Part shown: positions 4,933-63,948 of the stretch, in pieces
Position numbering within the stretch: position 1 is the stretch's first letter
Layout: every line of letters begins with the position of its first letter
Sequence record: OM632671.1
Reading direction: 5' to 3' (one strand)
Length of the DNA stretch: 64,000 nucleotides
From: Escherichia phage BEU50
Notes under the pieces: model-generated
What the model was told of the DNA's origin: nothing
Databases searched by the model: none
The model's input: the letters and a program-made list of their open reading frames with translations, nothing else
Program-made: the position numbers and the translations under genes

Positions 4933-5008
4933 GTGCCCTAGCCTTAGGATTTCTCGGTGCAATAGCTGCACTAGTGATTTGGCTGTATTGGTTGGACAAA
5001 CATGATTA

Positions 5009-5030
5009 GGGAGCTTCGGCTCCCTTTTGT
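5009..5030 (+). terminator. Intrinsic terminator (GGGAGC-TTCG-GCTCCC plus T-run)
   Basis: Perfect stem with UUCG loop followed by TTTT downstream of gene 52. Confidence 0.6.
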
Positions 5031-5048: not shown

Positions 5049-5126
5049 AGTTTACATGTGCTTCAAACATGATATTATAGACCTATCAAAACAAAACAAC
5101 CAAATTGGAGAAATAAAATGTCTAAA
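5049..5126 (+). repeat. Promoter/leader cassette, copy 1 (early promoter, leader, first codons ATGTCTAAA)
   Basis: About 90% identical to 5371-5446; GTTTAC 5050-5055, TGATATTAT extended -10, shared RBS GGAGAAATAAAATG. Confidence 0.7.
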
Positions 5127-5333
5127 ATGAAATTAACCCAAAACACAACTACTCGTTTCGGTAAAGTTAAACCTGGTATGAATGCTCCCCGTAAAGCACT
5201 TGTTGAAGAATTAAATTTCTTAGAAGTTGAAATCAATTCTTTAGTGGTTCGCGGTTCAAATGGACATCGTTTAGAAAAGCTTCGTTCTAAAAAGGCAAAA
5301 CTTATTGGCCTTATTAAAGAAATGAGTTTGTAA
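5118..5333 (+). CDS. Hypothetical small basic protein
   Basis: 71-aa ORF flanked by the duplicated promoter/leader cassette. Confidence 0.5.
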   Translation: MSKMKLTQNTTTRFGKVKPGMNAPRKALVEELNFLEVEINSLVVRGSNGHRLEKLRSKKAKLIGLIKEMSL

Positions 5334-5370
5334 ATTTTACCAGGGCTTTTGGAAAAAGAGCCCAAAATAA

Positions 5371-5446
5371 AGTTTACTTTTGCTTCAAACATGATATTAT
5401 AGACCTATCAAAACAAATACTAATTTGGAGAAATAAAATGTCTAAA
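5371..5446 (+). repeat. Promoter/leader cassette, copy 2 (upstream of motA)
   Basis: Direct repeat of 5049-5126 including the first three codons MSK. Confidence 0.7.
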
Positions 5447-6070
5447 GTTACTTACATCATCAAAGCTTCTGAAAACGCTCTGAATGAAAAAACTGCTGCA
5501 ATAATGGTTTATATCATTAAGAACAACTTCACCACTGCTGCCAATGTCCGTGAAGCTCTGGAAGCGGAATACAATGCATCGGTTGTTAACTCTAACATTG
5601 GTGTATTGATTAAGAAAGGTTTAGTCGAAAAATCCGGTGATGGACTTGTAGCAACAGGCGAAGCAATGGATATTATCCAAAAAGCTGCAGACCTATTTGC
5701 TCAAGAAAATGCTCCAGAACTTCTTCAGAAACGTAACACTAGAAAAGCACGTGGAGTTACTCCTGAAATGCATGAATTAGCAAACTTTGTTTTTGAAAAT
5801 ATTAAAGATAAAGTTGAAGTTAAAGAAATTGGTGAAAACCGTAGTAACTTGGAAGTTCGATTTGCAAAACGAGTTCTAGGTATTCGTCAGATCGAAATTC
5901 GTCGAGATGGTTCTCTTAGAATCTTTGCATACAACATGTCAGAAACTGAATCAAAGCTGTTTACTTCTCTTGAAAATGATGTTAAGATTAAGATCGGTGG
6001 TAAATATACTTACATTGACTTCCCTAATGTGTCCAAAGAAATCATTACCCTTGTAACTAACGTACTGTGA
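5438..6070 (+). CDS. motA: Middle transcription activator MotA
   Basis: 210 aa, N-terminus MSKVTYIIKAS and overall similarity to T4 MotA (211 aa). Confidence 0.85.
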   Translation: MSKVTYIIKASENALNEKTAAIMVYIIKNNFTTAANVREALEAEYNASVVNSNIGVLIKKGLVEKSGDGLVATGEAMDIIQKAADLFAQENAPELLQKRNTRKARGVTPEMHELANFVFENIKDKVEVKEIGENRSNLEVRFAKRVLGIRQIEIRRDGSLRIFAYNMSETESKLFTSLENDVKIKIGGKYTYIDFPNVSKEIITLVTNVL

Positions 6071-21777: not shown

Positions 21778-21800
21778 GGGAGACTTCGGTCTCCCTTTTG
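21778..21800 (+). terminator. Intrinsic terminator (GGGAGAC-TTCG-GTCTCCC plus T-run)
   Basis: Perfect stem-loop with UUCG loop then TTTT after gene 32. Confidence 0.6.
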
Positions 21801-21826: not shown

Positions 21827-21858
21827 GTTTACTTCTTCCCTGGATGTGTTACTATAGA
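21827..21858 (+). promoter_or_regulatory. Early promoter cassette (GTTTAC, TGtgTTACTAT)
   Basis: GTTTAC 21827-21832; -10 TACTAT 21850-21855; downstream leader identical to 2510-2545. Confidence 0.55.
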
Positions 21859-21884: not shown

Positions 21885-22277
21885 ATGGAAATCGGAAAAT
21901 CTTATATCATTAACCCTTTATTTAAAGATGACTTTGTTCAAGAAGCACCACACAATAACGCTAAGATGTTAAAATTGATTGAGCTCCACGGGCCCAGTTT
22001 TGTTGTAAACGGAATGGAACCTGATTATGATAGCGATACGCCAAACGTAGTAAGTGTAACTATGGAAGATGGTACTGTATGTTCTGCCGGTGGTGAAATT
22101 GAAACTTATTTTGAGATTTATCCTGACGAGTTCAAATACTTTACTGAGGTAGATTTAGTAAAGTCTCAAACTACTAACGAAGGTATAGCTTTAGGTGTAA
22201 CAAAAATCCATTGTATCGTAGATGAAACCAACGTCGACGAAATCATCAATCTTTTGCAAAAAACTTTTAAAAAGTAG
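21885..22277 (+). CDS. Hypothetical protein (frd.3 position)
   Basis: 130-aa ORF between gene 32 and frd. Confidence 0.5.
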   Translation: MEIGKSYIINPLFKDDFVQEAPHNNAKMLKLIELHGPSFVVNGMEPDYDSDTPNVVSVTMEDGTVCSAGGEIETYFEIYPDEFKYFTEVDLVKSQTTNEGIALGVTKIHCIVDETNVDEIINLLQKTFKK

Positions 22278-22314
22278 TGTACAATCAGATAGGGTTATGT
22301 TATAGTAGCCCTAT
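22277..22314 (+). promoter_or_regulatory. Early promoter cassette with inverted repeat (GTGTAC, TGtTATAGT)
   Basis: -10 TATAGT 22301-22306 between GATAGGGTTA and TAGCCCTATC arms. Confidence 0.5.
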
Positions 22315-22338
22315 CAAATAAAAGTGAAGGAGAATAAA

Positions 22339-28513: not shown

Positions 28514-28567
28514 GACTTTTTATTATAATTTACTCATGGATGAGTTAATAACTAAGTGAGAAATATA

Positions 28568-29218
28568 ATGAGTACAGTTTTTAACACACAACAAGTCGAT
28601 GTTTTGAATGAACCGATGTTCTTTGGTTCTGGTCTTGGCCTCGCACGGTATGATATTCAGCGTCATAAAGTTTTTGAAGAGCTTATCGAAAAGCAGCTCT
28701 CGTTCTTTTGGCGTCCCGAGGAAGTAAACTTGATGTTGGATTCGGCCCAGTTTAATAAGCTTCCACAGTTCCAACAGGACATCTTTACCAACAACCTTAA
28801 GTATCAATCATTATTAGATTCTATCCAAGGTAGAGCACCATCTGCGGTACTTATGTCATTGCTTTCAGACCCTTCATTAGATACATGGGTTGCTACATGG
28901 ACTTTCAGTGAAACTATTCACTCTCGTTCATATACTCATATTATGCGAAATCTTTATACAGATCCATCGAAGGTGTTTGATGAGATTGTATTAGATGAAG
29001 CTATTATGAAGCGTGCCGAATCTATCGGACGATATTATGATGATGTTCTGGTTAAAGCTCGTTATTGGGAAAACGCTAAAGAATTTGTAGAATTAGCTAA
29101 AGAATCTCCTGATGCCGACTTTCGTTTAAACCAAGCTATTAAACAAGAAGCCGAAGCTAAACGTGCTTTAATGAAATCTCTTTACCTCTGTTTGCACGTT
29201 ATTAATGCCTTAGAAGCT
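28568..29218 (+). pseudogene. nrdB: nrdB 5' fragment (ribonucleotide reductase small subunit, truncated after codon 217)
   Basis: MSTVFNTQQVD... through LYLCLHVINALEA matches class Ia R2 up to the conserved NALEA; expected continuation (IRFY...) absent; frame then runs through antisense gene 23 sequence. Confidence 0.75.
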
Positions 29219-29518
29219 AACCATACCCATAACTGCTGGCCCAATCTGGGTTACTGCACCAGAGGTTTGACCTGCTGCGATGTTCTGAGCATTATAACCG
29301 TGGTCACCACCAATTTCAGCTTCGGTCAAGAAAGAACCAAATGCCTGAGCGATTTTCTCGTCTTTATATTCAGGGGATACTTCGAAATCTTTTTCCTGGT
29401 TTTCGAAGATTTTAGCGATAATAGCCTGCTTGCTATTAGCGATTTCCGGCAGGCCTTCACCTTCCAGCAGTTCTTTCCATTTGTCTACGAGCTGAGCTTT
29501 AGTTTTGATAGTAGTCAT
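29219..29518 (-). pseudogene. 23: Major capsid protein gp23 N-terminal fragment (first 100 codons only)
   Basis: MTTIKTKAQLVDKWKELLEGEGLPEIANSKQAIIAKIFENQEKDF...GPAVMGMV matches T4 gp23 residues 1-100, then SF-stop where T4 continues RRAIPNL; no remainder of gene 23 in the window. Confidence 0.8.
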
Positions 29519-29535
29519 TTGTGTTAACCTTTAAA

Positions 29536-30348
29536 TTAGAAACGAGATGCGACTTTCGCATATAAACTTACATTAGAATTCTGTTCTACCTGAGTTGTGG
29601 TAGTGTCAACTGCTTCGGCAACAAAATTAAGACCGGCAGCGTCATTGTCAACTGTATTTATACTTTCGGTAATAGCGGCTTCTTCTTTAGTAGAACCTTT
29701 AACCATTTCTACAATAGCAGTTAACTTAGTACCAAATGCGTCAGAATAATCCATACCTTCAACCAGGCCAATAACTTTTTCTTTCTGAGATTCAGTCAGG
29801 TCTTTTACGCTTTCATTAATAGCGGTTTCACGCTGAACGTAATTGATATATGCATCACGTTTGGTAACTTCTTCGAACAATCGAGCGGTTTCTTCTTTAT
29901 GTTCGGCCAGCTCTTCTTCCATTTCTGCTACAACATCTACAGATTCTTCTGGAACAACAACGTTATGTTCAACAAACAGTTCTTTCAGACCACCAAGCAT
30001 GGATTCGAACAAATCAGCTTTAATGCCTTTATCAACTGCGATTTGGTTTTCTGCGAGCCATTCTTTTGCAAGATGGTCTAGGAATTTAGAAGCTTGTTCA
30101 GCCAATTTTTTATCAGCTTTCTCTTCAGCATCTTCTTTAGCCTTTTCAACTTCTTCTTCGGCCTTTTCGGCGATGGCTTTGATATGAGATTCAGCCAGTT
30201 TGACTGCTTCCTGCTTAACGGTGGCTTCGAATACAGTGCTGAAATTAGCTTTAACGTCCGGAGACAGTTCTACTGATTCGAAAACACTATTAAGAGCAAC
30301 TGAAGTCTCGATGTTCTGAGCTTCTTTCAAAAGTTGTTCTTTGATCAT
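29536..30348 (-). CDS. 22: Prohead scaffold protein gp22
   Basis: 270 aa, acidic coiled-coil-rich; synteny upstream of 23. Confidence 0.85.
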   Translation of the reverse strand: MIKEQLLKEAQNIETSVALNSVFESVELSPDVKANFSTVFEATVKQEAVKLAESHIKAIAEKAEEEVEKAKEDAEEKADKKLAEQASKFLDHLAKEWLAENQIAVDKGIKADLFESMLGGLKELFVEHNVVVPEESVDVVAEMEEELAEHKEETARLFEEVTKRDAYINYVQRETAINESVKDLTESQKEKVIGLVEGMDYSDAFGTKLTAIVEMVKGSTKEEAAITESINTVDNDAAGLNFVAEAVDTTTTQVEQNSNVSLYAKVASRF

Positions 30349-60013: not shown

Positions 60014-60025
60014 TTTCACAAAACA

Positions 60026-60060
60026 GTTTACATAAGGATGATGGCGTGTTACTATCATCC
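60026..60060 (+). promoter_or_regulatory. Early promoter cassette with inverted repeat (GTTTAC, TGtTACTAT, GGATGAT/ATCATCC)
   Basis: GTTTAC 60026-60031, -10 60050-60055, 7-bp inverted repeat arms flanking -10. Confidence 0.55.
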
Positions 60061-60089
60061 TATCAAATAAACGACCTCAAGGAAATAAA

Positions 60090-60377
60090 ATGAAAACCTA
60101 TAAAGAATTTATATCACCTGATGCTAACGTTTCTACTCTAACCGAAGCAACCCTTACTTCCGAAGTTATTAAAGCAAATAAAGGACGTGAGGGTAAACCA
60201 ATGATTGGCCTGGTTGACGGCGAAGAAGTAAAAGGTACTGTTTACTTAGGGGATGGATGGTCTGCTAAGAAAGATGGCGCTACTATTGTTATCTCTCCGG
60301 CTGAAGAGACTGCACTGTTTAAAGCTAAGCATATTTCTGTAGCTCAGCTTAAAATTATTGCAAAAACTCTTCTGTAA
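60090..60377 (+). CDS. ipI: Internal protein I-like capsid-targeted protein
   Basis: 95 aa with N-terminal capsid targeting sequence MKTYKEFIS (T4 CTS consensus MKTYQEFIAE); located next to 57B as ipI in T4. Confidence 0.6.
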   Translation: MKTYKEFISPDANVSTLTEATLTSEVIKANKGREGKPMIGLVDGEEVKGTVYLGDGWSAKKDGATIVISPAEETALFKAKHISVAQLKIIAKTLL

Positions 60378-60380
60378 GTA

Positions 60381-60418
60381 GTTTACATGCTGATAGGACT
60401 ATGTTATAGTAGTCCTAT
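60381..60418 (+). promoter_or_regulatory. Early promoter cassette with perfect 10-bp inverted repeat (GATAGGACTA/TAGTCCTATC)
   Basis: GTTTAC 60381-60386, TGtTATAGT 60402-60410 sits in the 8-nt spacer between arms 60393-60402 and 60409-60418. Confidence 0.6.
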
Positions 60419-60447
60419 CAAAACAAATGAGTAAATGGAGAAATAAA

Positions 60448-60634: not shown

Positions 60635-60997
60635 ATGAAATATCACGTATATGCGGATTTTGAAGCAAATCCTTCTAAAGACCCTGATTGTCGTTTGATA
60701 CGCAGACCATTTGATTCAGCAGCTCAAGCATGGGCTTGGATTAAAACTTGTACTCCTTCTTACACTTTCTTTGAAGTGGTAGACGATAACGGTGTTCTGC
60801 ATCCAGAACCTACAGAAACTATTAATTTCCTTCTGTTTGCTGGTTACGACTGTTATCCTCTTGGCGGTATTGATGATCTTGTTGCTACAGGAAAAACTGT
60901 TGAAGCTCTTCGCGAAATTTATAAAAACGCGGAAGAAAATTTTGACTGGTATCATATTGTTGATGCTCATACCTTTGAAATGGTGGAACATTCATGA
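60635..60997 (+). CDS. Hypothetical protein
   Basis: 120-aa ORF from ATG 60635 (GGTGAGTAAAATG). Confidence 0.45.
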   Translation: MKYHVYADFEANPSKDPDCRLIRRPFDSAAQAWAWIKTCTPSYTFFEVVDDNGVLHPEPTETINFLLFAGYDCYPLGGIDDLVATGKTVEALREIYKNAEENFDWYHIVDAHTFEMVEHS

Positions 60998-61284
60998 TTC
61001 TTTATGCTAAAGTATCGTCCATTGAGAACGGATATGAAAGCGACCAACGAGCAGCTAAAGCGTTAGTTGATGACTATGGTATTTTGACTAATTTTGAAGT
61101 TGAAAAGGTTTACATCGACCGTTCGTCTTCACAGGTTAAATTACTCTGTGAAGACGATAAATTTAACACAGTTAACTTTGATTTCTTTATTGAAACAGAA
61201 AAAGGCCCTCTTGAATATGATATTTTCAAGAATCCTTTGAAATTACGTTGCATTGAATATAATTACATTAATATGGTACGGTGA
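60994..61284 (+). CDS. Hypothetical protein
   Basis: 96-aa ORF, ATGA coupling with upstream ORF. Confidence 0.45.
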   Translation: MILYAKVSSIENGYESDQRAAKALVDDYGILTNFEVEKVYIDRSSSQVKLLCEDDKFNTVNFDFFIETEKGPLEYDIFKNPLKLRCIEYNYINMVR

Positions 61285-61883: not shown

Positions 61884-61957
61884 GGCCCTGTAGCTCAATG
61901 GTTAGCAGCAGTCCCCTCATAAGGGAAAGGTTACCAGTTCGAATCTGGTCTGGGTCA
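61884..61957 (+). tRNA. tRNA with CAU anticodon (Ile2-type lysidine tRNA or Met)
   Basis: Manual fold: acceptor GGCCCTG/CTGGGTC (one mismatch), D-arm GCTC, anticodon loop CTCATAA, T-arm ACCAG-TTCGAAT-CTGGT; 5' end resembles bacterial tRNA-Ile2; CCA not encoded. Confidence 0.6.
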
Positions 61958-61963
61958 TATATT

Positions 61964-62040
61964 CGAGGCATAGCTCAATTGTATGGAGCAACGGACTTCT
62001 AATCCGTAGGTTGAAGGTTAGAATCCTTCTGTCTCGACCA
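61964..62040 (+). tRNA. tRNA-Arg (anticodon UCU)
   Basis: Manual fold: acceptor CGAGGCA/TGTCTCG, D-stem GCTC/GAGC, anticodon stem ACGGA/TCCGT with loop CTTCTAA, T-arm GAAGG-TTAGAAT-CCTTC, encoded CCA. Confidence 0.75.
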
Positions 62041-63258: not shown

Positions 63259-63287
63259 TGCCCCTTCCTTATGGTTGGGGCTTTTTG
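63259..63287 (+). terminator. Intrinsic terminator (second copy of the GCCCCTTCC...GGTTGGGGC hairpin plus T-run)
   Basis: GCCCCTTCCTTATGGTTGGGGCTTTTT; direct repeat of 62716-62744. Confidence 0.55.
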
Positions 63288-63319: not shown

Positions 63320-63349
63320 GTTTACTTCTTCTAAGGACATGATACTATA
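63320..63349 (+). promoter_or_regulatory. Early promoter cassette (GTTTAC, TGATACTAT)
   Basis: GTTTAC 63320-63325, -10 63344-63349; leader GACTTATCAACCACAGAGGAG repeated at 63721-63745. Confidence 0.55.
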
Positions 63350-63690: not shown

Positions 63691-63720
63691 ATGTACAAGC
63701 ACCAAGGATGGTGATACTAT
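63691..63720 (+). promoter_or_regulatory. Early promoter cassette (ATGTAC, TGATACTAT)
   Basis: -10 TACTAT 63715-63720 with upstream TG; leader shared with 63350-63375. Confidence 0.5.
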
Positions 63721-63927: not shown

Positions 63928-63948
63928 TATAGTAGTCCTATCAAATCA
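63928..63948 (+). promoter_or_regulatory. Early promoter -10 plus shared leader (TGtTATAGTAGTCCTATCAAA)
   Basis: Same TATAGTAGTCCTATCA module as at 1993-2008, 2505-2520 and 60405-60420. Confidence 0.45.

Follow-up and report, generated by a model that had tools for sequence, protein, structure and literature searches.

Hairpins straddling the -10 hexamer of early promoters in Escherichia phage BEU50 and other T4-like phages

The window analyzed here is a stretch of 64,000 nucleotides from Escherichia phage BEU50 (sequence record OM632671.1), assigned by sequence similarity to a T4-like myovirus, RB69-like, of the genus Mosigvirus (Tevenvirinae). Six of its 14 early promoters (~40%) carry an inverted repeat whose arms straddle the -10 hexamer. 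Such repeats are enriched at promoters, their arms covary, their occurrence depends on the position of the upstream gene, and their 3' flanks lack U-tracts. The elements are probably compact cassettes of the promoter-early stem-loop (PeSL) type, in which a hairpin would form only in read-through RNA and serve the end of the upstream cistron.

Anatomy of the hairpin promoters

A total of 14 credible T4-type early promoters (P1-P14) were catalogued in the window, all on the + strand, along which early transcription runs; the top ranks of an independent promoter scan fell on the same sites. All are intergenic or at gene ends, and have an A/T-rich tract upstream, a GTTTAC-like -35, a spacer of 16-17 nt, mostly TGn followed by TAnnnT, and a Shine-Dalgarno sequence and ATG 30-45 nt downstream. 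The stem straddles the -10 in P1, P2, P3, P9, P10 and P11; the initial annotation had placed such repeats at many early promoters and had not listed P2. The six stems comprise 8-12 pairs, with RNA folding free energies (dG) of -13.2 to -17.7 kcal/mol and z-scores (z) of -4.6 to -6.4, and the remaining eight promoters have an RNA dG of -6.2 or weaker. The hairpin promoters, located by the first base of the -10 (1993, 2505, 2767, 22301, 60050 and 60405, respectively), are listed below together with the nearest stop codon upstream (ORF, open reading frame).

P1, 1969..2006, + strand: -35 1969-1975; -10 TATAGT 1993-1998; hairpin TAGGACTA 1982-1989 / TAGTCCTA 1998-2005, dG -13.2; upstream denB stop 1956.
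P2, 2481..2519, + strand: -35 2481-2487; -10 TATAGT 2505-2510; hairpin 2492-2519, GGTAGGATTAT / GTAGTCCTATC, containing T.G, dG -13.7; stop of upstream small ORF 2478.
P3, 2743..2783, + strand, upstream of ndd: -35 TGTACA 2744-2749; -10 TATAAT 2767-2772, no TG; hairpin TGAGAGCA 2756-2763 / TGCTCTCA 2772-2779, dG -13.9; upstream ORF stop 2740.
P9, 22277..22315, + strand: -35 GTGTACA 22277-22283; -10 TATAGT 22301-22306; hairpin GATAGGGTTA 22288-22297 / TAGCCCTATC 22306-22315, one T.G pair, dG -16.3; upstream ORF stop 22275-22277, abutting the -35.
P10, 60026..60061, + strand, ahead of an ipI-like internal head protein gene: -35 60026-60032; -10 TACTAT 60050-60055; hairpin AGGATGAT 60035-60042 / ATCATCCT 60054-60061, perfect, 8 bp, dG -13.2; upstream 57B-like gene stop 60013.
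P11, 60381..60420, + strand: -35 GTTTACA 60381-60387; TGt 60402-60404; -10 TATAGT 60405-60410; hairpin 60391-60401 / 60410-60420, perfect, 11 bp, 8-nt loop, RNA dG -17.7, z -6.4; arm cores GATAGGACTA 60392-60401 / TAGTCCTATC 60410-60419; upstream ipI-like gene stop 60377; likely start of downstream ORF ATG 60448.

The five repeats quoted in the initial annotation are all present, three of them with a coordinate range off by one base. Those of P1 (1982-2005) and P3 (2756-2779) had been placed exactly. The P11 repeat had been given as 60393-60418, one base off, and the perfect repeat is longer, at 11 bp. At P10, GGATGAT (60036-60042) and ATCATCC (60054-60060) are found with the start one base off and a loop of 11 rather than 8 nt, and at P9 the end was one base off and one position is a non-Watson-Crick T.G. 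The 8-nt spacing around an extended -10 likewise holds in five of the six, the exception being the loop of P10, and P3 (TATAAT) has no TG.

The 5' arm sits in the spacer between -35 and -10, and the 3' arm begins with the last T of the -10 and extends through the start site (to +3/+4). In five of the six hairpins the closing pair joins the base preceding TGn with the last T of the -10, and the 8-nt loop consists of the three bases ahead of the hexamer (TGn; gag at P3) and hexamer bases 1-5. In P10 the register is shifted by 5 nt. Arm sequences had been described as differing from locus to locus; this is true of P10 and of P3, whose arms are unrelated in sequence to the others in the window, but the remaining four share variants of a single arm pair, their 3' arm being the conserved start-site block of the promoter. 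Within this family, P9 and P11 differ by a compensatory A-T to G-C change in the stem.

The two arms are unequal. The block after the -10, A-n-n-C-C-T-A-T-C-A-A, carries ~1 bit per position across all early promoters, repeat-bearing or not, and CCTATCA is present in nearly all of them; C at -3..-1 was reported for T4-like early promoters (Nolan et al. 2006, PMC1524935). The spacer is nearly devoid of information. It is thus the promoter that dictates the 3' arm (-7 to +3/+4), and adaptation falls to the spacer. Standard sigma-70 geometry would place +1 at the A of CCTATCA, which in P11 is the A at 60417. From this predicted start, the promoter's own transcript lacks the 5' arm entirely and includes just 3-4 nt of the 3' arm, and the own 5' leaders are unstructured (dG 0 to -2.8). 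Since +1 would lie inside the 3' arm, the full hairpin is expected only in RNA arriving from upstream.

Variants of this pairing were seen in other phages. In one T4-like clade the start block is CCTACACAAAC instead of CCTATCAAAAC (loci with ...CCTACAC... after the -10), and the hairpin promoters of that clade have a matching GTGTAGG in the spacer; the spacer thus tracks the start block of each clade. At three loci (L078, IMG/VR 2938479101_000006; L094; L045) the pairing partner of the spacer is the downstream Shine-Dalgarno region instead of the start block, as in TTCCTCCG in the spacer and CGGAGGAA at the ribosome-binding site. Such pairing would silence translation of the read-through RNA only, the early-promoter counterpart of the arrangement at T4 gene e.

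The reverse strand also looks promoter-like at P11 (60411-60436) and P14 (63934-63958), with ATTTACT/GTTTTCC, 17-18 nt and TACTAT, because of the palindrome. These sites have no TG and a poor -35 that lies within the ribosome-binding region of the downstream gene; judged by these features they are probably not functional, but could give antisense starts.

Enrichment, covariation and the upstream gene

The whole window contains 81 perfect repeats (arm of at least 7 bp, loop 3-12), compared with 50 +/- 6 in dinucleotide shuffles, and a single 7-bp repeat on its own is unremarkable. The initial annotation had allowed that the palindromes might be no more frequent at promoters than in shuffled sequence, and a strong excess was found: a Watson-Crick stem of at least 7 bp lies across the -10 in 5 of the 14 promoters, versus 3.7% at 1,631 other TAnnnT sites, and none of 500 spacer shuffles attained this count.

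For comparison, T4-type promoters of other T4-like phages were collected from IMG/VR by three pattern scans (3.06 Mb, 341 loci). The definition used leaves the arms unconstrained, and from the 206 unique promoters 170 representatives were kept, separated by more than 6 differences over 48 positions. A Watson-Crick stem of at least 7 bp straddles the -10 in 21.8% of the 170, the null with spacers permuted among promoters being 2.9% (max 7.6%). Their dG values are distributed bimodally: a trough separates ~43 strong hairpins from the bulk, which lies above -8.

To score covariation, all 127 promoters with a 17-nt spacer were aligned without gaps and without selection for hairpins. In the main register 51.5% of cells are paired (null 46.5 +/- 1.0), and the covariation score of 0.262 (null 0.201 +/- 0.011) was reached in none of 500 shuffles and exceeds that of every slid register. 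The second register (closing pair -8/+4, as in P10) is weak on this unselected alignment (5/500 and 18/500) and represents a minority arrangement. Arm pairs are highly diverse across the set, for example GATAGGAAG/CTTCCTATC, GGGTTAT/ATAACCC, GTGTAGGAGTA/TACTCCTACAC, GATGGAAGCA/TGCTTCCATC and TGATGAGGTA/TACCTCATCA; the last is found at the T4 ipI promoter, which like that of trna.4 (ATAGGGT/ACCCTAT) keeps the hairpin with different arms. At least 30 different 3'-arm cores are matched by their own 5' arms, over 31 loci. These sequence comparisons indicate that the embedded hairpin is a real and selected feature. They also agree with the earlier suggestion of a base-pairing requirement in place of a sequence-specific operator, in that unrelated arms in two registers stay complementary and the covariation is significant.

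The presence of the hairpin follows the gene upstream. All six embedded hairpins of the window belong to promoters whose -35 begins -1 to 12 nt past the stop of an upstream co-oriented gene. Four promoters with gaps of 37-116 nt (P4, P5, P8, P12) carry a separate hairpin in the gap, and three of these four hairpins have the classic terminator make-up of GC-rich stem, UUCG-type loop and T-run. The eight promoters of the window without an embedded hairpin are as follows.

P4, 5008..5078, + strand: -35 5050, -10 TATTAT 5073-5078; stand-alone hairpin AGGGAGC-ttcg-GCTCCCT 5008-5025, then TTTTGTG, terminator type.
P5, -10 at 5395-5400, + strand: separate hairpin 5343-5363 upstream.
P6, 7868..7897, + strand, ahead of an asiA-like gene: no hairpin; the upstream ORF overlaps the -35 and spacer.
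P7, 18530..18559, + strand, the rnh promoter between divergent genes: hairpin absent, and no co-oriented gene upstream.
P8, 21778..21855, + strand, after gene 32: -10 TACTAT 21850-21855; stand-alone hairpin GGGAGAC-ttcg-GTCTCCC 21778-21795 and TTTT, terminator type.
P12, 63260..63348, + strand: -10 TACTAT 63343-63348; stand-alone hairpin GCCCC...GGGGC 63260-63281 and TTTTTG.
P13 and P14, 63691..63933, + strand: -10 63715-63720 and 63928-63933; short or overlapping upstream gaps, no hairpin. P14 retains the 3' block AGTCCTATCA, and its spacer taagtaagttta resembles a decayed 5' arm.

The same dependence was observed among the 170 promoters, where 34 of 81 with a gap of up to 15 nt have an embedded hairpin, versus 9 of 74 with a longer gap (42% vs 12%; Fisher p=3e-5). 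Where a long-gap promoter lacks an embedded hairpin, a stand-alone one of -9 kcal/mol or below is present in 36 of 55 cases. Embedded hairpins are missing from all 15 promoters that have no co-oriented ORF upstream (p=0.013) and from the nine where the ORF overlaps the spacer, and at gaps of -1 to 15 the rate is 34/72.

The two classes of hairpin differ in composition. Embedded hairpins (n=43) have a mean of 12 pairs, 43% GC, loops of 6-8 nt and A-rich tails (T fraction 0.19; TTT in 1/43), whereas stand-alone hairpins (n=36) have 57% GC, often tetraloops, and tails with a T fraction of 0.48 (TTT in 18/36). Embedded hairpins resemble intrinsic terminators and 3'-stabilising stem-loops in being stable hairpins just after a stop, positionally interchangeable with the terminator hairpins of long gaps, but differ from terminators in their AT-richer stems, larger loops and missing U-tract. 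A GC-rich stem with an immediate U-tract is found in the stand-alone hairpins at 5008-5025, 21778-21795 and 63260-63281 and in none of the embedded ones, which were also not called in a + strand terminator scan of the window. Because there is no U-tract, an embedded hairpin is unlikely to be an efficient intrinsic terminator. An Rfam search of the hairpin promoter sites gave no known RNA family, and only two tRNAs were matched.

A role in read-through RNA and its alternatives

That the hairpin depends on the gene upstream and trades places with terminator hairpins suggests a function for the end of the preceding cistron, exerted in read-through RNA and not in promoter DNA. In the favored reading, the element is a strong sigma-70 early promoter, composed of an UP-like A/T tract, GTTTACA, a 17-nt spacer, TGn, TAYWRT and the CCTATCA block, whose otherwise unconstrained spacer would have evolved complementarity to its own conserved -7..+4 block. 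Transcription from the promoter itself would start within the 3' arm and give an mRNA with an unstructured A-rich leader and no hairpin. Read-through RNA from the upstream gene would contain both arms and could form a hairpin of 10-12 bp some 10-25 nt past the upstream stop. In function, this hairpin would belong to the 3' end of the upstream cistron, replacing a separate stem-loop and folded into the promoter when space is too short. Two candidate roles are considered, namely the attenuation or pausing of read-through transcription, as proposed for PeSLs, and a block to 3'-exonucleases once the A-rich leader or Shine-Dalgarno region has been cleaved, which would protect the upstream message. 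The exonuclease block is preferred, as a leaning, because no U-tract is present.

Several points weigh against this reading. The position of +1, any 3' ends at the hairpins, the action at the RNA level and the role of the hairpin are inferred from sequence. The hairpin is not obligatory, as 38 of the 72 short-gap promoters are without it. The association with gap length could in part reflect shared ancestry of cassette families, a concern tempered by the spread of the representatives over 31 loci and by their differences from one another, which exceed 6 of 48 positions. At variable stem positions, G.U against A.C was 7 versus 0 in a first count and 17 versus 11 in a strand-neutral search of a larger set, with a null ratio of 244:317, and this comparison was kept out of the argument. 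The greater stability of sense over antisense RNA (39 versus 8) is partly built in by fixed promoter bases, because the T of TGn pairs with G/A in the -10, and it is thus not independent evidence for RNA. Finally, in view of the missing U-tracts, the published terminator role is doubtful for the embedded class.

A wider proposal is put forward tentatively. The embedded hairpins may be markers of transcript form and not terminators, with the early cistron boundaries of Tevenvirinae selected for a hairpin in read-through RNA that acts post-transcriptionally, for example as a stop to 3'-exonucleases once RegB or RNase E has cut in the A-rich leader. At tight gene boundaries, the spacer of the promoter would be recruited to pair with the invariant start-site block. 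If true, the decay of neighboring cistrons would be uncoupled, read-through and promoter-initiated mRNAs of one gene would fare differently, and the 'non-informative' sigma-70 spacer would hold a second, RNA-level code.

The first alternative, which we regard as unlikely, is a structure at the DNA level: a cruciform, or a single-strand hairpin during replication or recombination, would make the promoter supercoiling-sensitive by occluding the -10, or mark it as a target for structure-specific nucleases and recombination. Four of the six window repeats are perfect palindromes that can fold on both strands (DNA dG -5 to -9 kcal/mol on either strand), the counts of 17 G.U and 11 A.C are compatible with it, and promoter cassettes are recombination sites (5049-5448). 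However, the stems of P2 and P9 need T.G pairs, and at P2 the DNA dG falls to -1.9. Arms of 8-12 bp with loops of 6-8 nt extrude poorly as cruciforms. Extrusion had been suggested in the initial annotation as the operative form, a suggestion at odds with the way in which the hairpin follows the upstream stop, is missing where no co-oriented gene lies upstream, and alternates with ordinary RNA terminator hairpins; a hairpin dependent on the upstream gene is not a property of the promoter DNA alone. Reviews leave the mechanism of T4 early-promoter shut-off unresolved (PMC2988021, PMC3014915), which leaves room for a DNA switch, but a general shut-off switch would not be confined to the roughly one quarter of early promoters that have the hairpin.

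Palindromy without function is rather improbable. It could arise as a by-product of recombination or duplication among cassettes (e.g. inverted-template repair) and be carried along with a successful promoter family. The four window cases that belong to one sequence family fit this origin, as do the cross-hybridization of cassettes as dispersed repeats, the indels they mediate, and the resemblance of P14 to a decayed copy. Against this, covariation, unrelated arms and two registers argue for maintained pairing, as do the matching 5' arms of at least 30 3'-arm cores over 31 loci and the compensatory changes between P9 and P11 and between the T4 and window ipI promoters; the bimodal dG distribution indicates maintenance and not drift. 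A dimeric protein that represses or activates a subset of early promoters through an operator is highly improbable, since its classic geometry, a dyad centered on the -10, and an early shut-off factor yet to be identified are set against arms that are unrelated between loci (e.g. TGAGAGCA, AGGATGAT, GATAGGACTA, TGATGAGGTA, GTGTAGGAG), a symmetry center that moves 5 nt between registers, and a sole conserved half, the start-site block, that also occurs in promoters without a repeat. A conserved half-site at a fixed distance was not found, and arm diversity together with the two registers largely refutes an operator.

Relation to known elements, genome context and implications

Arbiol et al. 2010 (PMC2839356) and Comeau et al. 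2014 (PMC4122927) describe the PeSL as an intergenic composite of a strong early promoter and a stem-loop, with five subclasses of stem-loop position (between -35 and -10, over the -35 or the -10, upstream of the -35, and just downstream of the -10), a role as terminator or attenuator, and mini-circles excised by recombination of neighboring elements. In RB49 and phi1 the stem-loops lie most often between -35 and -10 or overlap the -10, and terminator activity was shown for one RB49 stem-loop only, PeSL211/210 (PMC2839356). The six window promoters likewise combine an early promoter and a stable stem-loop in one intergenic element and fall in the subclass that overlaps the -10. A resemblance to PeSLs had been suggested in the initial annotation and is upheld by these published positions and by RB49 itself. 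In the first 50 kb of RB49 a strong hairpin was found at 11 of 23 sigma-70-type promoters; seven of the 11 straddle the -10 (5' arm in the spacer, 3' arm in a CCCATC start block, A-rich tails) and three lie inside the spacer. As in RB49 and phi1, the window elements are dispersed repeats that precede small ORFs where the genome is plastic, and promoter copies form the boundaries of cassette indels. The founding consensus of RB49/phi1, TTGACA-N17-TATAAT with a G/C-rich Gn-loop-Cn, is not shared by the window elements, which have GTTTACA, TAYWRT (TATAGT/TACTAT) and stems of 43% GC.

Analogous, weaker AT-rich elements on T4 early promoters were reported from T-even internal-protein loci (Repoila et al. 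1994, known here as cited in PMC2839356), and Arbiol et al. term the T-even elements analogs and not homologs of the RB49 PeSLs (PMC2839356). P10 and P11 flank an ipI-like gene and thus lie at the same internal-protein locus. For PST and T4, Comeau et al. 2014 (PMC4122927) give TTTACW-N17-TAYWAT with A-Gn-A / T-Cn-T stems. The window promoters fit this type, their stems are AGGA...TCCT, and the denB-ndd region (P1-P3) is an exchange example there (Fig. 6A). In that paper the PST stem-loops are placed 'just upstream of the promoter' (PMC4122927), the position of the stand-alone hairpins of P4, P8 and P12 and not that of the class straddling the -10. Mosigvirus is not among the phages analyzed in the 1994 and 2014 papers. 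On sequence features, the window elements are analogs of the RB49 PeSLs and members of the T-even PeSL variant, here in Mosigvirus. The accessible parts of the PeSL papers mention neither a dependence on intergenic length nor missing U-tracts; these two features and the asymmetric roles of the arms may be new detail that leaves the category unchanged.

T4 itself offers a further parallel. Its records NC_000866 and AF158101 have no promoter or terminator annotation, and reviews mention 'additional regions of consensus' in early promoters and no dyad (PMC2988021). In T4 e, soc, 49 and I-TevI a late promoter lies inside the region encoding the 5' strand of an RNA hairpin (PMC3014915). These genes share with the window elements a promoter within a hairpin-coding segment, such that read-through RNA is structured and promoter-initiated RNA is not. 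They differ in that their promoters are late and their hairpin sequesters the ribosome-binding site, silencing translation of the early read-through RNA, whereas the window promoters are early and the 3' arm ends ~15-20 nt before the Shine-Dalgarno sequence and leaves it uncovered.

Promoter elements of the window cross-match one another at 80-97% identity. They sit in the denB-ndd and 57B-ipI-tRNA regions and downstream of gene 32, upstream of ORFs of 66-148 aa, as expected of dispersed PeSL repeats in hyperplastic regions ahead of small ORFs. A modular indel bounded by such elements was found at the non-embedded pair P4/P5.

Cassette, 5049-5370, + strand: 322-bp promoter and ORF cassette between gene 52 and motA, with a 71-aa ORF at 5118-5333 and a hairpin at 5343-5363.
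Direct repeat, 5049-5126 and 5371-5448: 78 bp, bounding the cassette and spanning promoter, leader and first codons; ATGTCTAAA.

The cassette is absent from O157 typing phage 6, AV118, JK36 and phiE142 (L343-L346), where the promoter is present in a single copy. The 71-aa ORF and motA share their first codons because the 78-bp repeat extends into the coding sequence. Promoter cassettes thus act as recombination linkers, in partial agreement with the hotspot proposed in the initial annotation; what is needed is a repeat of ~50-80 bp and not a hairpin. No indel breakpoints were found at the six embedded-hairpin promoters (P1-P3, P9-P11), which are colinear with the close relatives examined. Extra alignment pieces against relatives were considered as indels and rejected as promoter cross-hits.

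The nearest relatives of the window, with 97-99% identity, are Escherichia phages a20 and vB_Eco_F31, both assigned to Mosigvirus. Gene names were taken from the annotation of relatives, and the layout is as follows.

0-8 kb: rIIB, denB, small ORFs, ndd, ac, gene 52, motA and asiA.
Between this block and the next, - strand: tail fibre genes 38-34.
18-28 kb: rnh, 59, 32, frd, td and nrdA.
29-56 kb, - strand: structural genes.
57-64 kb: genes 3, 1, 57A and 57B, ipI, small ORFs and two tRNAs.

The tRNA genes (61884-61957 and 61964-62037, + strand) are tRNA-Met and tRNA-Arg by the annotation of phage a20. This cluster of two is far smaller than the eight of T4, and segB is absent. The longest perfect inverted repeat of the window (12 bp, TCGTCTTCACAG / CTGTGAAGACGA, 11-nt loop, 61123-61157) lies within a small ORF (60994-61284) and not at a promoter. 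In a20, a coding sequence for a 33-aa 'hypothetical protein' (a20_258; L342 3493-3594; window equivalent 60015-60116) is annotated directly over the ipI promoter and hairpin, and probably reflects a spurious call prompted by the intergenic cassette. Relative to a20, its closest relative, the window has an abrupt junction at 29219 (context 28556-29536). The left flank matches a20 up to 44037 (nrdB exon 1), and the right flank begins at a20 9052, ~300 nt into the major head protein gene, so that 34,984 bp are gone, comprising most of gene 23 and all a20 genes from there to nrdB. A phage with such a genome should therefore not be viable, and the junction probably stems from misassembly, from a defective genome or from artificial concatenation.

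The intergenic-length dependence and the lack of U-tracts make the function of the hairpin directly testable. For annotation, about a quarter of T4-type early promoters are prone to be miscalled as 'hairpins' or palindromes, and intergenic hairpins without a U-tract should not be labelled terminators. For phage engineering, cassettes of 50-80 bp are natural recombination linkers, as the one at 5049-5448 shows, and an altered promoter spacer may change the stability or read-through of the upstream message. The favored reading would account for an odd trait of very strong phage promoters, a spacer complementary to the start region, and would tie this complementarity to genome compaction, one stretch of DNA serving both as the promoter of the downstream gene and as the 3' hairpin of the gene upstream.

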